This document shows positions 1-51,715 of a DNA stretch of 64,000 nt, one piece after another. Under the pieces are notes generated by a model. The model worked only from the letters and a program-made list of their open reading frames with translations. It did not search any database and had not been told where the DNA came from. A program made the position numbers and the translations under genes. The stretch's first letter is position 1. Each line of letters starts with the position of its first letter. The stretch lies in the NCBI RefSeq assembly GCF_013122565.1, contig NZ_CP053258.1. One strand, 5' to 3'. Source of the stretch: Escherichia coli (GTDB lineage Bacteria; Pseudomonadota; Gammaproteobacteria; Enterobacterales; Enterobacteriaceae).

Positions 1-1842
1 GGCTGCGAATGCGTGCTGGCGACCGATTATCGTCTGGCGACGCCGGATCTGCGCATCGGTCTGCCGGAAACCAAACTGGGCATCATGCCGGGCTTTGGCG
101 GTTCTGTACGTATGCCACGTATGCTGGGCGCTGACAGTGCGCTGGAAATCATTGCCGCCGGTAAAGATGTCGGCGCGGATCAGGCGCTGAAAATCGGTCT
201 GGTGGATGGTGTAGTCAAAGCAGAAAAACTGGTTGAAGGGGCGATGGCGATTTTACGCCAGGCCATTAACGGCGACCTCGACTGGAAAGCAAAACGTCAG
301 CCGAAGCTGGAACCGCTAAAACTGAGCAAGATTGAAGCCACCATGAGCTTCACCATCGCTAAAGGGATGGTCGCACAAACGGCGGGGAAACATTATCCGG
401 CCCCCATCACCGCAGTAAAAACCATTGAAGCTGCGGCCCGTTTTGGTCGTGAAGAAGCATTAAACCTGGAAAACAAAAGTTTTGTCCCGCTGGCGCACAC
501 CAACGAAGCCCGCGCACTGGTCGGCATCTTCCTTAACGATCAATATGTAAAAGGCAAAGCGAAGAAACTCACCAAAGACGTTGAAACCCCGAAACAGGCC
601 GCTGTGCTGGGCGCAGGCATTATGGGCGGCGGCATCGCTTACCAGTCTGCATGGAAAGGCGTGCCGGTTGTCATGAAAGATATCAACGACAAGTCGTTAA
701 CCCTCGGCATGACCGAAGCCGCGAAACTGCTGAACAAGCAGCTTGAACGCGGCAAGATCGATGGTCTGAAACTGGCTGGCGTGATCTCCACGATCCACCC
801 AACGCTCGATTACGCCGGATTTGACCGCGTGGATGTTGTAGTAGAAGCGGTTGTTGAAAACCCGAAAGTGAAAAAAGCCGTACTGGCAGAAACCGAGCAG
901 AAAGTACGCCCGGATACCGTGCTGGCGTCTAACACTTCAACCATTCCTATCAGCGAACTGGCCAACGCGCTGGAACGTCCGGAAAACTTCTGCGGGATGC
1001 ACTTCTTTAACCCGGTCCACCGAATGCCGTTGGTGGAAATTATTCGCGGCGAGAAAAGCTCCGACGAAACCATCGCGAAAGTCGTCGCCTGGGCGAGCAA
1101 GATGGGCAAAACGCCGATTGTGGTTAACGACTGCCCCGGCTTCTTCGTCAACCGTGTGCTGTTCCCGTATTTCGCCGGTTTCAGCCAGCTGCTGCGCGAC
1201 GGCGCGGATTTCCGCAAGATCGACAAAGTGATGGAAAAACAGTTTGGCTGGCCGATGGGTCCGGCATATCTGCTGGACGTTGTGGGCATTGACACCGCGC
1301 ATCACGCTCAGGCAGTCATGGCAGCAGGCTTCCCGCAGCGGATGCAGAAAGATTATCGCGATGCCATCGACGCGCTGTTTGATGCCAACCGCTTTGGTCA
1401 GAAGAACGGCCTCGGTTTCTGGCGTTATAAAGAAGACAGCAAAGGTAAGCCGAAGAAAGAAGAAGACGCCGCTGTTGACGACCTGCTGGCAGAAGTGAGC
1501 CAGCCGAAGCGCGATTTCAGCGAAGAAGAGATTATCGCCCGCATGATGATCCCGATGGTCAACGAAGTGGTGCGCTGTCTGGAAGAAGGCATTATCGCCA
1601 CTCCGGCAGAAGCGGATATGGCGCTGGTCTACGGCCTGGGCTTCCCTCCGTTCCACGGCGGCGCGTTCCGCTGGCTGGACACCCTCGGCAGCGCAAAATA
1701 CCTCGATATGGCACAGCAATATCAGCACCTCGGCCCGCTATACGAAGTGCCGGAAGGTCTGCGTAATAAAGCACGTCATAACGAACCGTACTATCCCCCG
1801 GTTGAGCCAGCCCGTCCGGTTGGCGACCTGAAAACGGCTTAA
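1..1842 (+). CDS. fadB: Fatty acid oxidation complex alpha subunit (enoyl-CoA hydratase / 3-hydroxyacyl-CoA dehydrogenase), 5' end truncated by window edge
   Basis: Frame 1 is open from position 1; 609 aa visible of the ~729-aa protein; recognised NAD-binding and hydratase regions; immediately followed by fadA with an AGGAG RBS. Confidence 0.93.
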
Positions 1843-3015
<1,173 letters not shown>

Positions 3016-3020
3016 GCACT

Positions 3021-3215
<195 letters not shown>

Positions 3216-3296
3216 GATACGTCATAGATCTAAATGCCACTGAATAACAGTTTAGTTGCCGTTCTTCCCGCCTGTCAGGGGCGGGTTTTTTATATC

Positions 3297-3998
3297 TCAG
3301 ATAAATGCAAACGCATCGCCAAACAGGCGATCTTCCCGCGCATTACGCTCACTGCAAAACAGGTCACGAGCAATTTTCGCCATCTCAAAACGTCCGGCAA
3401 TATAGATATCATGCTCTGCCAGCGTACCGTGATCCTGCAATACCGCCGTTAACACGGTGCCAGTACGCCCACGCCAGCCCGCTTCCGGTTGTTCAACCAC
3501 CGGCACCACTTGCAGACCAGGGTGCTTTAACGAAAGCGCCTCAAGCTCGCAGAGATCATACAGATGCTGCTCTTCACGCCCGCCCCAGTAAATGGTGATA
3601 TCACGGTTTGGGTTACGCGCCAACGCTGTCAGCAAAATCGAGCGGGCATAAGAGAACCCGGTGCCGCCCGCAATCAAAATCATCGGACGCTCTTCATCAT
3701 CGCGCAGCCACGCTTCTCCGTGGGGAATATCGACCACGATTTGATGATCTTTGAGGATGCGGTCCATGACTGCTTTCGCGTAAAGGTTGATTTCAGAAGC
3801 GCCAATATGCAGCTCGATAAACCCTTTTTCATCCGGCGTCGAGGCCATTGAGAACGGACGTTTGTCGCGCTCATCCATCACTACCATCAAATACTGACCA
3901 GCACGAAAAGAAAAGGCCGCGTCTGGCACGATGCGGACACGATATACGGTATCCGTGATAGCTTCTACCGAGGTCACTTTACAGCTTAAGGTTGTCAT
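3297..3998 (-). CDS. fre: NAD(P)H-flavin reductase
   Basis: Track ORF 3297..4031; trimmed to the [15 protein letters not shown] start, giving the known 233 aa. Confidence 0.9.
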
Positions 3999-8658: not shown

Positions 8659-10901
<2,243 letters not shown>

Positions 10902-21967: not shown

Positions 21968-21976
21968 AAAATAATG

Positions 21977-22020
21977 TCGGATGCGGCGTAAACGCCTTAT
22001 CCGACTTACTCTGATGACGC
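21977..22020. repeat. REP element between convergent rhtB and rhtC
   Basis: tcggatgcggcgtaaacgccttatccgac palindromic unit. Confidence 0.75.
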
Positions 22021-29840: not shown

Positions 29841-30605
29841 ATGGCGCATCGGCTACTCATTGGTAAAGGAATGATCACCTTGAATCTCAAACGGATTTTT
29901 CTCGCCCTCACCTTACTTCCCTTGTTTGCTGTTGCCGCTGATGATTGCGCACTCTCAGATCCGACGCTGACCGTACAGGCGTATACCGTTAATCCTCAAA
30001 CAGAGCGGGTGAAAATGTACTGGCAAAAAGCCAATGGCGAAGCGTGGGGAACGTTACATGCTCTGCTGGCGGAGATGAATAGTCAGGGTCAGGTGCAGAT
30101 GGTGATGAACGGCGGCATCTATGATGAAAGCTATGCGCCACTCGGTTTGTACATCGAAAACGGTCAGCAGAAGGTGGCGTTAAATCTCGCTTCAGGTGAA
30201 GGGAATTTCTTTATCCGTCCTGGCGGCGTGTTTTATGTCGCGGGAGATAAAGTCGGCATCGTTCGTCTGGATGCCTTTAAAACCAGTAAAGAGATTCAGT
30301 TTGCGGTGCAGTCAGGGCCAATGTTGATGGAAAACGGCGTAATTAATCCGCGTATTCATCCCAACGTCGCCTCACGCAAAATTCGTAACGGTGTTGGGAT
30401 TAATAAACATGGGAACGCCGTGTTTTTGTTGAGCCAGCAGGCGACAAATTTTTATGATTTTGCCTGTTATGCCAAAGCGAAACTGAACGTTGAGCAGTTG
30501 CTTTACCTTGATGGCACGATTTCACATATGTATGTGAAAGGAGGCGAGATCCCCTGGCAGCGTCATCCTTTTGTCACCATGATTGCCGTCGAGCGGAAAG
30601 GTTAG
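29841..30605 (+). CDS. yigE: Uncharacterised secreted protein YigE
   Basis: 254 aa with N-terminal signal peptide (LLPLFAVAADD). Confidence 0.8.
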   Translation: MAHRLLIGKGMITLNLKRIFLALTLLPLFAVAADDCALSDPTLTVQAYTVNPQTERVKMYWQKANGEAWGTLHALLAEMNSQGQVQMVMNGGIYDESYAPLGLYIENGQQKVALNLASGEGNFFIRPGGVFYVAGDKVGIVRLDAFKTSKEIQFAVQSGPMLMENGVINPRIHPNVASRKIRNGVGINKHGNAVFLLSQQATNFYDFACYAKAKLNVEQLLYLDGTISHMYVKGGEIPWQRHPFVTMIAVERKG

Positions 30606-30640
30606 AATGATAGTTTTGTGTCAGATACTAAATATGGTGC

Positions 30641-30750
30641 TGATGCCGGATGCGACGTAAACGCCTTATCCGGCCTACATGACGTTGCAATTTATTGAAT
30701 CTGAATGATTTTTAGGCCAAATAAGGTGTGCAGCACCGCATCCGGCAACG
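30641..30750. repeat. Composite REP element with central IHF-like site (RIP/BIME type) between yigE and uvrD
   Basis: Inverted gccggatgcg...cgccttatccggcctac arms flanking tgcaatttattgaat. Confidence 0.75.
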
Positions 30751-32913
30751 TTACACCGCCTCCAGCCGGGCGTAAGCCGCCACCAGCCATTTGATTCCCT
30801 GGCCCTGGAATGCCACCTGCAAACGGCTATGTTCACCGCTGCCTTCCATATTGACGATGGTGCCTTCACCAAACTTAGCGTGGCGTACGCGCTGGCCGAG
30901 CTTGTAGCCGCTGTCGTTCTCGACCATCGGCGTACCCATACGCTGATGGCTGACCGGGCGGCTTACCGTAGCGCGTAAACGCACCTCTTCCACACACTCT
31001 TCCGGCAGCTCGCCGATAAAGCGCGACGGGCGATGGTAAACCTCTTTACCATACAGACGGCGAGTTTCCGCGTAGGTCAGCGTCAGTTTCTGCATCGCGC
31101 GGGTTACGCCAACGTAGGCCAGACGGCGTTCTTCTTCCAGACGTCCGCCTTCATCCAGCGACATCTGGCTTGGGAACATGCCCTCTTCCATACCGACAAT
31201 AAACACCTGCGGAAACTCCAGACCTTTCGCCGAGTGTAGCGTCATCAACTGCACCGCATCCTGCCAGGTATCCGCCTGCCCTTCACCTGCTTCCAGCGCC
31301 GCATGGGAGAGGAACGCCTGCAGCGGCATTAAATCTTCGTCTTCTTCGTTGTAGCTGAACTGGCGCGTTGCCGTCACCAGTTCCTCTAAGTTTTCGATAC
31401 GCGTCTGACCTTTTTCGCCCTTCTCCTGCTCGTACATGGTGCGCAGGCCGGAGTCTTTAATTACCCGGTCAGTCTGTACATGCAGCGGCATATCGGCAGT
31501 TTCCTGCGCTAAGGCGTCGATTAATTCCATAAACCGCTGTAAGGCGCTGGCAGCACGTCCGGCGAGGGCTTTTTCCTGCAACAGTTCACGACATGCCTGC
31601 CAGAGTGTTAACTGGCGATCGCGCGATGTCTGACGTACCACGTCCAGCGTCCGGTCACCAATACCCCGCGTTGGCGTATTCACCACACGCTCAAACGCCG
31701 CGTCATCATTACGGTTGGCAATCAGGCGCAGATACGAGAGCGCATCTTTGATTTCCTGGCGTTCGAAGAAGCGCATCCCGCCGTAAATACGGTACGGCAT
31801 ACTCGCCTGCAACAGTGCCTCTTCCAGCACACGCGACTGGGCGTTGCTGCGGTAGAGAATGGCGCACTCGGCAAGCGCCCCGCCGTTGTCCTGCCAGGTT
31901 TTGATGCGGTTAACCACAAAACGCGCTTCGTCGAGTTCGTTAAAAGCGCAATAGAGGGAAATAGGCTCACCGTCCGCGCCATCGGTCCACAATTTTTTAC
32001 CCAGACGCCCGTTGTTGTTTTCAATGAGGGCGTTCGCGGCGCTCAGAATATTGCTGGTAGAGCGGTAGTTCTGCTCCAGACGGATAGTTTCAGCACCGGG
32101 GAAATCATTGAGGAAACGCTGAATATTCTCGACCTGCGCCCCGCGCCAGCCGTAGATTGATTGATCGTCATCGCCAACGATCATCACTTTGCCGGTGTCG
32201 CCCGCCAGCAGGCGGATCCACGCGTACTGAATGTTGTTGGTATCCTGGAATTCGTCCACCAGGATGTTGGTAAAACGTTCGCGGTAGTGTTGCAGGATAT
32301 GCGGCTTGTTAAGCCACAACTCGTGAGCGCGCAGCAGCAGCTCGGCGAAGTCCACCAGGCCCGCACGATCGCACGCTTCCTGATACGCCTGATACACTTT
32401 CTGCCAGGTCTGCTCCACCGGATTACCGTAGCTTTGAATATGATGCGGACGCAGGCCTTCATCTTTCTGGCTGTTGATGTACCACATTGCCTGGCGCGGC
32501 GGCCACTGCTTCTCGTCGAGGTTCATGGCTTTGATCAGACGCTTAAGCAGGCGTAGCTGGTCTTCACTGTCGAGGATCTGGAAATCCTGCGGCAGATTGG
32601 CGTCCATATGGTGCGCACGCAGCAAACGGTGCGCCAGCCCGTGGAAGGTGCCGACCCACATGCCGCCCTGGCTGGTGCCCATCAGTTGCCCGATACGATG
32701 ACGCATCTCCGCCGCCGCTTTGTTGGTAAACGTCACAGCCATAATCGAGTAAGGCGAGCAGTTTTCCACGCTCATCAGCCAGGCGATACGATGCACCAGT
32801 ACGCGCGTCTTACCACTGCCCGCGCCCGCCAGCACCAGAAGGTTGCTGCGTGGCGCGGCCACCGCTTCGCGCTGTTTGTCATTAAGGCTATCGAGCAGGT
32901 AAGAAACGTCCAT
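30751..32913 (-). CDS. uvrD: DNA helicase II (UvrD)
   Basis: Track ORF extends to 33102; trimmed to MDVSYLLDSLNDKQREAVAAP for 720 aa; Walker A GAGSGKT. Confidence 0.95.
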   Translation of the reverse strand: MDVSYLLDSLNDKQREAVAAPRSNLLVLAGAGSGKTRVLVHRIAWLMSVENCSPYSIMAVTFTNKAAAEMRHRIGQLMGTSQGGMWVGTFHGLAHRLLRAHHMDANLPQDFQILDSEDQLRLLKRLIKAMNLDEKQWPPRQAMWYINSQKDEGLRPHHIQSYGNPVEQTWQKVYQAYQEACDRAGLVDFAELLLRAHELWLNKPHILQHYRERFTNILVDEFQDTNNIQYAWIRLLAGDTGKVMIVGDDDQSIYGWRGAQVENIQRFLNDFPGAETIRLEQNYRSTSNILSAANALIENNNGRLGKKLWTDGADGEPISLYCAFNELDEARFVVNRIKTWQDNGGALAECAILYRSNAQSRVLEEALLQASMPYRIYGGMRFFERQEIKDALSYLRLIANRNDDAAFERVVNTPTRGIGDRTLDVVRQTSRDRQLTLWQACRELLQEKALAGRAASALQRFMELIDALAQETADMPLHVQTDRVIKDSGLRTMYEQEKGEKGQTRIENLEELVTATRQFSYNEEDEDLMPLQAFLSHAALEAGEGQADTWQDAVQLMTLHSAKGLEFPQVFIVGMEEGMFPSQMSLDEGGRLEEERRLAYVGVTRAMQKLTLTYAETRRLYGKEVYHRPSRFIGELPEECVEEVRLRATVSRPVSHQRMGTPMVENDSGYKLGQRVRHAKFGEGTIVNMEGSGEHSRLQVAFQGQGIKWLVAAYARLEAV

Positions 32914-49896: not shown

Positions 49897-51132
49897 TTAC
49901 TTACTCACCACCAGCAAATGTGCCTGCATAATGTCACTGGCCGGGCGACCGTGCGCCAGCAAATCAGCCATTGCTTTAAGATATGGCGGTAGATGGCGGA
50001 AATAACGCTGATACCCGGCACACAAATAATTCAGCCCCGGTTTGCCGCTGGCATCGAGCATGAAGCGGTGTTTCGGGCAGCCTCCCCAACATGCTTTTAA
50101 CACGTTACAACTGCGACACTGCGCCGGTAACTGCTTAAATTTATCTTCACCAAACACCTGCTGTTGCGGGGAATCGATCATTTCTGCAATTGTTTGCTGA
50201 TGCATATTCCCCAGTCGATATTGCGGATAAACATAGTGATCGCAGGCGTAAACGTCGCCGTTGTGCTCAACAATCACCGAGCGCCCACAGGTTGGCTGAT
50301 GATGGCAAACCGCACCCGGCGCACCGACAAAATTGGCAAACGCCCATTCGATATTCATCACGAAAATCTTGCCGACGTCGCGTTTGATCCAGTGGTCGAA
50401 TATCGCCACCAGAAATTCACCAAATTCATCGGGGCGCACCGACCATTCCGTCAGTTCCCCCTGAATATCACCAGGCGCATGCAATTTCAGTCCATCGCGG
50501 GCAGCTGTTTCATCAGCCAGACGCTCGACCACCGGAATAAACTGGATGAATTCGACTCCCGCATCGCACAAAAAATCATAAACCTGCAACGGTTGCTGCG
50601 CGCTGGTGCGGTTGACGCAGACCAGCACGTTATAGTCGACATGATGTTTTTGCAGCAGCGTCAGGGCACGCATCACCAGCTTATGCGTTGGTCTGCCACC
50701 TTTGGTCACGCGATATTGATTGTGGATCTCAGCCGGACCGTCCAGCGATAACCCAACAAGAAAATGATTTTCTGCCAGAAATGCACACCATTCATCATCG
50801 AGCAGCACGCCGTTAGTCTGGAAGCTGTTACTTATCTTCCTGCCAGCACCGTATTTCGCCTGTAACTTTACGGCACGGCGGTAAAAATCCAGCCCGAGTA
50901 ACGTTGGTTCGCCGCCCTGCCAGGTAAAAGCCACTTCGTTTTGGGTTTCGCTGGCAGCGATATAGTGACGGACATACGCTTCCAGCGTGTCATCGTCCAT
51001 ATGCGTGACTGGCTTTTCGCGGTAAAGGGATTGTTTTTCGAGATAAAAACAGTAGTCACAGTTCAGATTACAATCGGAACCGCTCGGTTTCGCCATCACA
51101 TGAAAAGCACGCGTTGGAACCTGTTGCAGCAT
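49897..51132 (-). CDS. aslB: Anaerobic sulfatase-maturating enzyme (radical SAM)
   Basis: Trimmed to MLQQVPTRAFHVMAKPSGSDCNLNCDYCFY, 411 aa; CxxxCxxC radical-SAM motif. Confidence 0.9.
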   Translation of the reverse strand: MLQQVPTRAFHVMAKPSGSDCNLNCDYCFYLEKQSLYREKPVTHMDDDTLEAYVRHYIAASETQNEVAFTWQGGEPTLLGLDFYRRAVKLQAKYGAGRKISNSFQTNGVLLDDEWCAFLAENHFLVGLSLDGPAEIHNQYRVTKGGRPTHKLVMRALTLLQKHHVDYNVLVCVNRTSAQQPLQVYDFLCDAGVEFIQFIPVVERLADETAARDGLKLHAPGDIQGELTEWSVRPDEFGEFLVAIFDHWIKRDVGKIFVMNIEWAFANFVGAPGAVCHHQPTCGRSVIVEHNGDVYACDHYVYPQYRLGNMHQQTIAEMIDSPQQQVFGEDKFKQLPAQCRSCNVLKACWGGCPKHRFMLDASGKPGLNYLCAGYQRYFRHLPPYLKAMADLLAHGRPASDIMQAHLLVVSK

Positions 51133-51278: not shown

Positions 51279-51355
51279 TGGTCGGCGAGAGAGGATTCGA
51301 ACCTCCGACCCACTGGTCCCAAACCAGTTGCGCTACCAAGCTGCGCTACTCGCCG
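51279..51355 (-). tRNA. proM: tRNA-Pro (anticodon UGG)
   Basis: Minus-strand CGGCGAGTAGCGCAGCTTGGTAGCGCAACTGGTTTGGGACCAGTGGGTCGGAGGTTCGAATCCTCTCTCGCCGACCA, 77 nt. Confidence 0.95.
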
Positions 51356-51397
51356 AAATACTGCTTTTTGAATTTTTAGTTCAATTCTTTAAAGTCG

Positions 51398-51484
51398 TGG
51401 TGCGAGGGGGGGGACTTGAACCCCCACGTCCGTAAGGACACTAACACCTGAAGCTAGCGCGTCTACCAATTCCGCCACCTTCGC
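51398..51484 (-). tRNA. leuT: tRNA-Leu (anticodon CAG)
   Basis: Minus-strand GCGAAGGTGGCGGAATTGGTAGACGCGCTAGCTTCAGGTGTTAGTGTCCTTACGGACGTGGGGGTTCAAGTCCCCCCCCTCGCACCA, 87 nt. Confidence 0.95.
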
Positions 51485-51504
51485 ATTGTCACAACTTCTA
51501 ATAA

Positions 51505-51581
51505 TGGGGTGGCTAATGGGATTCGAACCCACGACAACTGGAATCACAATCCAGGGCTCTACCAACTGAGCTATAGCCACC
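51505..51581 (-). tRNA. hisR: tRNA-His (anticodon GUG)
   Basis: Minus-strand GGTGGCTATAGCTCAGTTGGTAGAGCCCTGGATTGTGATTCCAGTTGTCGTGGGTTCGAATCCCATTAGCCACCCCA, 77 nt with the extra 5' G typical of tRNA-His. Confidence 0.95.
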
Positions 51582-51638
51582 ACTACAAATCTTGTTACGC
51601 GGTATTACTACCACCGCAGCTCAAGCGCCGGGACTAAA

Positions 51639-51715
<77 letters not shown>

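Follow-up and report, generated by a model that had tools for sequence, protein, structure and literature searches.

Two BIME-1/RIP-type REP elements between convergent genes of Escherichia coli

Introduction

The spacer between the convergent genes yigE and uvrD holds a pair of inverted REPs around a long linker, and a second structure of this kind lies between aslA and aslB in the same window, the 64,000-nt stretch of DNA analysed here. We asked what these two structures, termed E1 (yigE–uvrD) and E2 (aslA–aslB), are, whether one is a recent copy of the other, as a preliminary description of this DNA had suggested, and what they might do for the transcripts that run into them.

BIME-1/RIP elements have been known since the early 1990s. 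The name BIME-1 reportedly belongs to the nomenclature of Bachellier, Gilson and Hofnung, and the names RIP and RIB are said to come from Oppenheim et al. in 1993 and from Boccard and Prentki in 1993, respectively.

In the literature, a BIME-1 consists of a y and a z1 REP, present as a single copy, with a long and well-conserved L linker that often contains an IHF site (PMC3333891; PMC2817692). Our analysis indicates that E1 and E2 are very probably two separate, old members of the known BIME-1/RIP (RIB) family. The family itself has long been known, and the consequence overall is small, since it has tens of copies per E. coli genome and both copies are conserved in K-12. What can be added is a correction and some specialist points: E1 and E2 are not recent duplicates and should not be flagged as a case of recent repeat mobility or gene conversion, their y arms are on opposite sides of the linker and are partnered by non-z1 arms, and interior-deleted alleles occur at both loci.

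Genomic setting and anatomy of the elements

The window is a segment of an E. coli-type chromosome, reverse-complemented with respect to MG1655, that runs from fadA through uvrD and aslA/aslB to an argX-type tRNA cluster. None of the complete E. coli genomes in RefSeq (5,426) matches the window exactly; identity reaches 97.9% over 6 kb, 96.5% around yigE/uvrD and 98.3% around aslA/aslB. Both elements lie between convergent 3′ ends (yigE at 30605 and uvrD at 30751; aslA at 49729 and aslB at 49897), in spacers of 145 nt and 167 nt, respectively, as had been described. The places first given for them were right; the limits could be narrowed, slightly for E1 (originally 30641..30750) and more for E2, for which 49740..49870 was rather wide (Table 1). 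There is one unit per spacer, and searches with blastn-short and nhmmer found no further REPs in 30606..30750 or 49730..49896. The GenBank record of K-12 presumably carries a 'RIP' annotation in the uvrD–yigE spacer. In RefSeq NC_000913.3, where this spacer spans 4000146..4000291, no repeat feature is annotated.

Table 1 Features of the two elements, their flanking genes and the comparator REP cluster (positions are those of the window)
Feature	Position	Strand	Detail
yigE	29841..30605	+	DUF2233 / phosphodiester glycosidase family; converges on E1 from the left
E1, whole BIME-1/RIP-type element	30644..30747	− (canonical family orientation)	sequence; nhmmer paralog-only model
E1 arm A, y-type REP	30645..30678	+	GCCGGATGCGACGTAAACGCCTTATCCGGCCTAC; 32/34 identical to the y consensus of the family sample
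E1 long linker (L), 34 nt	30679..30712	−	minus strand AAAATCATTCAG ATTCAATAAATTGCA ACGTCAT; aligns to the family linker
E1 IHF-consensus-like 13-mer	30688..30700	−	ATTCAATAAATTG; within the shared 15-mer 30686..30700; 1 mismatch to WATCAANNNNTTR; predicted only
E1 arm B, divergent REP	30713..30746	−	GCCGGATGCGGTGCTGCACACCTTATTTGGCCTA; CTAC degenerated to CTAA
uvrD	30751..32913	−	DNA helicase II; converges on E1 from the right; stop TAA at 30753..30751
aslA	48074..49729	+	arylsulfatase; converges on E2 from the left
E2, whole BIME-1/RIP-type element	49757..49862	− (canonical family orientation)	sequence; nhmmer paralog-only model
E2 arm A, 36-nt hybrid REP	49758..49793	+	GCCGGATGCGATGCTGACGCATCTTATCCAGCCTAC; long z 83%, y 82%, short z 72%
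E2 long linker (L), 34 nt	49794..49827	−	minus strand ATGATCGTGCAA ATTCAATAAATTGCA GCGTTCT
E2 IHF-consensus-like 13-mer	49803..49815	−	ATTCAATAAATTG; within the shared 15-mer 49801..49815; predicted only
E2 arm B, y-type REP	49828..49861	−	GCCTGATGCGGCGTAAACGCCTTATCCGGCCTAC; 32/34 identical to the y consensus; 94% to E1 arm A
Terminator-like hairpin 3′ of E2 in the aslA sense	49872..49898	+	AGGCGGC-gacaaaaug-GCCGCUU, then UUUUU; RNAfold −11.3 kcal/mol
aslB	49897..51132	−	anaerobic sulfatase maturase; converges on E2 from the right
Comparator REP cluster	3021..3206	+	two y + long-z pairs, 14–15-nt linkers, BIME-2-like

Inverted REP arms were found around a linker in both spacers, in agreement with the preliminary description, although the arm that it quoted, gccggatgcg...cgccttatccggcctac, is the left arm only in E1; in E2 the same sequence forms the right arm, on the reverse strand. 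In each element one arm is clearly y-type and its partner is divergent or hybrid. Arm B of E1 scores best as a y-type REP (80%), followed by long z (72%) and short z (69%), and its inner stem, GGTG/CACC, still pairs where the y stem has GGCG/CGCC. Each arm considered alone is predicted to fold, arm A of E1 at −14.1 kcal/mol in the yigE sense and arm A of E2, with the inner stem GAUGC/GCAUC, at −15.3 kcal/mol. The inner stems thus vary and yet pair (GGCG/CGCC in the y arms, GGUG/CACC in arm B of E1, GAUGC/GCAUC in arm A of E2), and complementary variation of this kind is a known REP pattern (PMC3333891).

Membership of the BIME-1/RIP family

To place the two elements among their relatives, we scanned one genome per bacterial species with the strict pattern core-N7-GTAGGC, so that the resulting sample is biased to exact cores. 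It yielded 18 loci, with Escherichia, Citrobacter and Pseudocitrobacter accounting for nearly all of them, and all 18 are built alike: a y-type REP whose CTAC end meets a 34-nt linker of the form AAAAnnnTGCAA-ATTCAATAWATTGCA-Gnnnnnn, after which come GTAG and a second, inverted REP. A paralog-only nhmmer profile was then built from the 12 members that are not orthologous to E1 or E2. It aligned across arms and linker, and it also found further members in the flanks of the sampled loci. E1 scored 62.0 bits on the minus strand (E 2e-18) and 49.6 bits on the plus strand, and E2 scored 78.0 bits (E 2e-23) and 45.3 bits, respectively; since the best scores fall on the minus strand of the window, the canonical orientation of both elements is fixed. 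E1 had the lowest score of all full-length members against this model. BLAST matches to the 50-nt linker consensus turned up in 5,425 of the 5,426 E. coli genomes, with a median of no fewer than 28 sites in each, a figure that is a lower bound.

The assignment to RIP/BIME-1 made in the preliminary description, with inverted REPs on both sides of a conserved long linker for which an IHF site has been reported, is therefore upheld by most of the features that define the type. Two inverted REPs turn their CTAC/GTAG ends towards the linker in both elements (CTAA in arm B of E1), the conserved L linker is 34 nt long in both, with ATTCAATAWATTG at its centre, one arm of each is y-type (arm A of E1 and arm B of E2, each 32/34), and the unit is single and non-tandem in both spacers. 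The elements also resemble BIME-1 in their position at the 3′ ends of transcription units and in belonging to a group with tens of copies per E. coli genome. They depart from it in the second arm. The short z arm seen in canonical members of the sample, GCCTGATGCGCTACGCTTATCAGGCCTAC, which from its position there and from the published consensus is probably z1, is 69% identical to arm B of E1 and 72% identical to arm A of E2, so that neither element has a z1-type second arm; in E1, moreover, the y arm takes the flank of the linker that is occupied by the z arm in canonical members. E1 and E2 are thus slightly atypical rather than textbook BIME-1s, combining the L linker with non-z1 partner arms.

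The cluster near the start of the window, given as 3021..3215 in the preliminary description, which had named it as a comparator, shares only arms with E1 and E2; its linkers are 14–15 nt long and lack the L core. It is built from the same REP building blocks, with y arms 94–97% identical to the y consensus and a long z that the long arm of E2 resembles (83%). BIME-2 elements, for which gyrase cleavage has been reported (PMC6379681), are, however, tandem arrays of y and z2 REPs with short S linkers, and E1 and E2, being single units with 34-nt L linkers, are not of that type. Within the cluster, positions 3074..3151 on the minus strand match the Rfam family naRNA4 (RF02564), the only REP locus in the window with an Rfam match; at the gathering threshold, no Rfam covariance model matched E1 or E2. 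A small-RNA gene at E1 or E2 was considered and rejected, there being neither a promoter nor an Rfam match. Like single REPs or palindromic units, every arm of E1 and E2 folds alone into a stable hairpin; unlike single REPs, of which the window has a solo example at 21976..22009, both elements are composite, carry a linker motif and have arms that can pair with each other into a hairpin of about 100 nt.

Relationship between E1 and E2

The preliminary description regarded the two elements as near-identical and attributed this to recent copy/paste or gene conversion. What they share most strikingly is the core of the linker: the 64 kb contain just two exact copies of the 15-mer TGCAATTTATTGAAT, one at 30686 and one at 49801, whereas none was expected from 100 shuffles. 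The core as originally quoted, the 16-mer ctgcaatttattgaat with a leading c, is exact in E2 only, the copy in E1 starting with t. The one point in favour of a chance likeness of two GC-rich palindromic spacers is that the IHF consensus itself carries little information, but the 15-mer count, the profile E-values of 2e-18 and 2e-23 and the tens of related copies per genome led us to reject chance likeness, and its probability is negligible.

A real shared core does not make the elements near-identical, and in this respect the earlier claim failed. Global alignment gave 88/118 identical positions (75%) when the elements were aligned in one orientation and 92/120 (77%) when one of them was reversed, core-anchored 108-nt windows gave 77%, and the linkers agree at 26 of 34 positions. 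These values lie inside the range of 73–82% found among unrelated members: identity to other loci was 73–77% for E1 and 74–82% for E2, and E1 and E2 compared across all ortholog pairs gave 74–81%. The proposal of recent copying or conversion of one element by the other draws on the 15-mer that is confined to E1 and E2 within the window, on y arms that are 94% identical and on the ATAAAT core variant that both carry, most sampled canonical members having ATATAT. Against this, the two y arms flank the asymmetric core on opposite sides, and the non-y arms, GCCGGATGCGGTGCTGCACACCTTATTTGGCCTA in E1 and GCCGGATGCGATGCTGACGCATCTTATCCAGCCTAC in E2, are only 78% alike. The exact 15-mer, moreover, recurs at two or more further loci of the family sample (L003/L009/L020 and L013), and the E2 ortholog of E. 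albertii has the ATATAT variant, which shows that the core varies independently of E1.

E1 is kept at yigE–uvrD in MG1655, strain 88-3493 and E. whittamii (L016), at 90–99% identity. E2 is kept at aslA–aslB, at 92–95%, both within E. coli, in MG1655 (L025) and E69 (L008), and outside it, in E. whittamii (L017) and E. albertii (L004). The loci in E. whittamii, E. albertii and E69 were placed by tblastn of the flanking proteins. Each element is therefore far closer to its own ortholog in another species than to the other element, and the orthologs retain the locus-specific arms and differences. Since both have own-locus orthologs in other Escherichia and show no special closeness to each other, both copies predate the split of these Escherichia species. 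Recent copying or conversion is accordingly highly improbable, and on sequence grounds E1 and E2 appear to be old copies with no special kinship to each other.

IHF and the linker

The centre of both linkers, ATTCAATAAATTG, matches the IHF consensus WATCAANNNNTTR at 12 of 13 positions. Matches with at most one mismatch are, however, present in the window at chance level (60 found against 47.7 expected), so that the case for IHF binding lies in membership of the family rather than in the motif match. By analogy with the family literature, IHF would bind and bend the linker DNA, with ATTCAATAAATTG at the centre as the reported site, and the elements could possibly act in topological insulation (PMC6907758), the insulating role that had been proposed alongside a stabilizing one. 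The text of an IHF/HU ChIP-seq paper (PMC3333857) does not mention REP, BIME or RIP, and a full-text literature search found nothing linking IHF to yigE/uvrD or aslA/aslB.

RNA folding and transcript 3′ ends

As RNA, both strands of E1 and E2 fold far better than shuffled sequences (z −5.2 to −6.0), with energies of −10.6 to −19.8 kcal/mol for single arms and −47 to −59 kcal/mol for whole elements. Position and very stable hairpins on both strands could also suggest bidirectional intrinsic (Rho-independent) terminators that resemble REPs by accident. Yet no U run follows E1 or E2 on either strand, scans found no consensus intrinsic terminator (and no promoter) in either spacer, and a dispersed family with at least 28 copies per genome is not what a locus-specific terminator would look like. 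In the aslA sense, a separate and weak hairpin with a U run does follow E2 (Table 1), which argues that E2 itself is not the terminator. This makes the terminator reading very unlikely. The separate hairpin overlaps the aslB stop codon and was missed by the consensus scan on account of its 9-nt loop; the MG1655 sequence differs at this position.

For Rho-terminated transcripts, REP hairpins have been described as defining and protecting the 3′ ends (PMC6061677), and the suggestion that E1 and E2 are mRNA-stabilizing structures fits both this literature and the stable folding on both strands (z about −5). The yigE and uvrD transcripts, like those of aslA and aslB, would run into the element from both sides; whichever strand is transcribed, the RNA of the element would fold into a very stable REP hairpin or into the long hairpin formed between the two REPs; and, by blocking 3′-to-5′ exonucleases, this hairpin would determine where transcripts without an intrinsic terminator end at steady state. 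That both converging transcripts enter the element and have their 3′ ends defined and protected by a REP hairpin is, judging from structure and literature together, rather probable. The RepRanger supplements, searched for mapped 3′ ends, make no mention of yigE, uvrD, aslA or aslB.

A further effect may concern translation. REPs that lie no more than 15 nt from a stop codon are reported to make terminating ribosomes stall and to reduce translation (summarized in PMC12306157). In the uvrD sense, the E1 hairpin begins 3 nt past the stop codon and thus falls inside this window, and ribosome stalling with lowered translation of uvrD may follow, which we put at somewhat short of an even chance.

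Allelic variation and mobility

The distribution of the elements among the 5,426 complete E. coli genomes revealed that neither locus is uniform. At yigE–uvrD, the full arrangement with E1 is present in 2,986 of 5,426 genomes, and 2,413 (~45%) have an alternative allele in which an extra gene of the SAM hydrolase/halogenase family lies between yigE and uvrD; the two alleles together account for 5,399 of the 5,426. The alternative allele, found for example in strain G3X16-2, keeps only a 33-nt near-perfect hairpin beside uvrD, tgccggatgcggtgtggcgcaccgcatccggca, which corresponds to E1 minus 30655..30724. At aslA–aslB, full E2 is found in 2,236 genomes (~41%), about one-third of genomes lack the left arm of E2 together with the 3′ part of aslA (as in ACN001, where aslA is a pseudogene), and a short allele, tgccggatgcgatgctgacgcatccgacaatc, with a hairpin of ~27 nt, carried for example by SCU-204, occurs in ~790 genomes at a match of 99% or more (~15%). 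Outgroup species have the full elements, so that internal deletion is the simplest origin for the short alleles. Their junctions lie at CGCATC direct repeats in E2 and at a 1-nt microhomology in E1; compared with the published C|T cleavage by TnpA-REP, they gave no clear match.

Both elements are thus dispensable in natural E. coli. Because the linker is absent from each locus in a large share of natural E. coli, the roles discussed above are inessential at these loci, and the commonness of the short alleles means that an IHF-dependent function is not required there. The hairpin beside uvrD behaves differently from the interior with its IHF-like site: at a distance of 3 to 14 nt from the uvrD stop codon, a hairpin persists in all alleles of yigE–uvrD.

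These patterns bear on the view that E1 and E2 are selfish or neutral MITE-like BIMEs, spread by the Y1 transposase TnpA-REP (RAYT), that have no host function and whose 3′ position is merely a tolerated site of insertion. According to a published proposal, TnpA-REP acts on BIMEs, which would themselves be non-autonomous (PMC2817692; PMC3333891), and E1 and E2 share with such elements (REPtrons) a dispersed family, boundaries formed by inverted REPs and presence/absence among strains, here at both loci, with the IHF-core interior missing in ~45% of genomes at E1 and ~15% at E2. Unlike them, E1 and E2 have no adjacent transposase gene and no visible target-site duplication, and both are old copies that have stably kept their places across Escherichia species, with no recent mobility to be seen. 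The short alleles likewise look like internal deletions and not like clean excisions, their junctions fitting simple deletion rather than C|T cleavage, and the retention of the hairpin beside the uvrD stop codon in every allele, even where the interior is gone, suggests that the hairpin itself is retained. Neutral spread is compatible with the family assignment and competes only with the functional part of our reading; as an account of E1 and E2 we consider it doubtful. We therefore favour the reading of both as old BIME-1/RIP-type elements whose hairpins would serve transcript 3′ ends.

The full alleles and those reduced to the outermost stem (33 nt at uvrD, ~27 nt at aslA–aslB) might be footprints of a recurrent removal or insertion of BIME-1 interiors, a tentative idea that we think rather unlikely; palindrome-driven slippage and TnpA-REP (RAYT) activity could be the processes behind it. 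If it were true, the two loci would be natural test cases for BIME turnover and for whether the IHF interior or the terminal hairpin alone is of consequence to the flanking genes; the interior is dispensable, and a hairpin beside the uvrD stop codon is always retained. The allele change at uvrD is linked to gain or loss of the neighbouring SAM hydrolase-family gene.

Alleles of the yigE–uvrD and aslA–aslB spacers

The spacer between yigE and uvrD, which in the window holds the BIME-1-type element E1, is polymorphic in gene content in E. coli (loci L021, L022 and L026). An additional 903-nt gene of the SAM hydrolase/SAM-dependent halogenase family lies between yigE and uvrD in 2413 complete E. 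coli genomes, including BLR(DE3), strain C and G3X16-2, and in these genomes E1 is replaced by a 33-nt hairpin. E1 is present and the 903-nt gene absent in 2986 genomes, the type to which the window and K-12 belong. The left breakpoint of the polymorphism coincides exactly with the yigE stop codon, and the right one is located immediately left of ggtgctgatgccggatgcg.

At least three alleles were found in E. coli for the aslA–aslB spacer (loci L023 and L024), the first of which carries the full second element, E2. A short hairpin is found instead in the second (for example, SCU-204), a structure consistent with a deletion between CGCATC direct repeats. The third allele, exemplified by ACN001, in which aslA is annotated as a pseudogene, has lost most of aslA through a deletion that stops within the left E2 arm; from even-step sampling, roughly one-third of genomes are estimated to carry this allele. 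When the spacer is read in the aslA direction, E2 is followed by a weak hairpin that resembles a terminator, has a U run and overlaps the stop codon of aslB. In MG1655 this site is occupied by another, shorter sequence, ggcggccgccgatttc.

Comparison of the window with 5,426 complete RefSeq E. coli genomes revealed at most approximately 98% identity to any of them (97.9% at best over 6 kb, and 96.5% at yigE–uvrD), and the lineage of the window therefore has no close representative among these genomes.

Other REP elements and RNAs

The window also contains a BIME-2-like REP cluster directly after a gene ending near position 3015, composed of two pairs of y and long-z arms with 14–15-nt linkers. 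The naRNA4 match within this cluster, detected at the Rfam gathering score, probably reflects generic REP similarity and not a true naRNA4 locus. A lone y-type REP, GTCGGATGCGGCGTAAACGCCTTATCCGACTTAC, lacks a partner arm and is 88% identical to the y consensus of the sampled family.

BIME-1 elements have been described as single copies, whereas Escherichia sp. E1V33 (locus L011) carries three BIME-1-type elements within approximately 2.1 kb, two of them separated by only about 80 nt. Typical E. coli BIME-1 sequence was also observed in short contigs labelled as Desulfosporosinus sp. OT (L006, 262 nt), an Alistipes MAG (L007, 5.3 kb, containing yigE–E1–uvrD) and Alkalicoccobacillus porphyridii (L013, 720 nt, coverage of about 1); these contigs almost certainly represent E. 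coli contamination of the respective assemblies.

Coordinates of features in the window and in locus L011
Feature	Sequence	Position	Strand	Remark
BIME-2-like REP cluster	window	3021..3206		
naRNA4 match	window	3074..3151	-	RF02564, 93.5 bits
'Erse' sRNA model	window	10296..10547	-	Rfam RF02757, 314 bits
Lone y-type REP	window	21976..22009		
yigE–uvrD spacer	window	30606..30750		
GlmZ sRNA	window	47443..47649	-	Rfam; just upstream of aslA
aslA–aslB spacer	window	49730..49896		
Terminator-like hairpin	window	49872..49898		
Four tRNA genes	window	51282..51715	-	Rfam
BIME-1-type elements	L011	141..244; 323..425; 2160..2263
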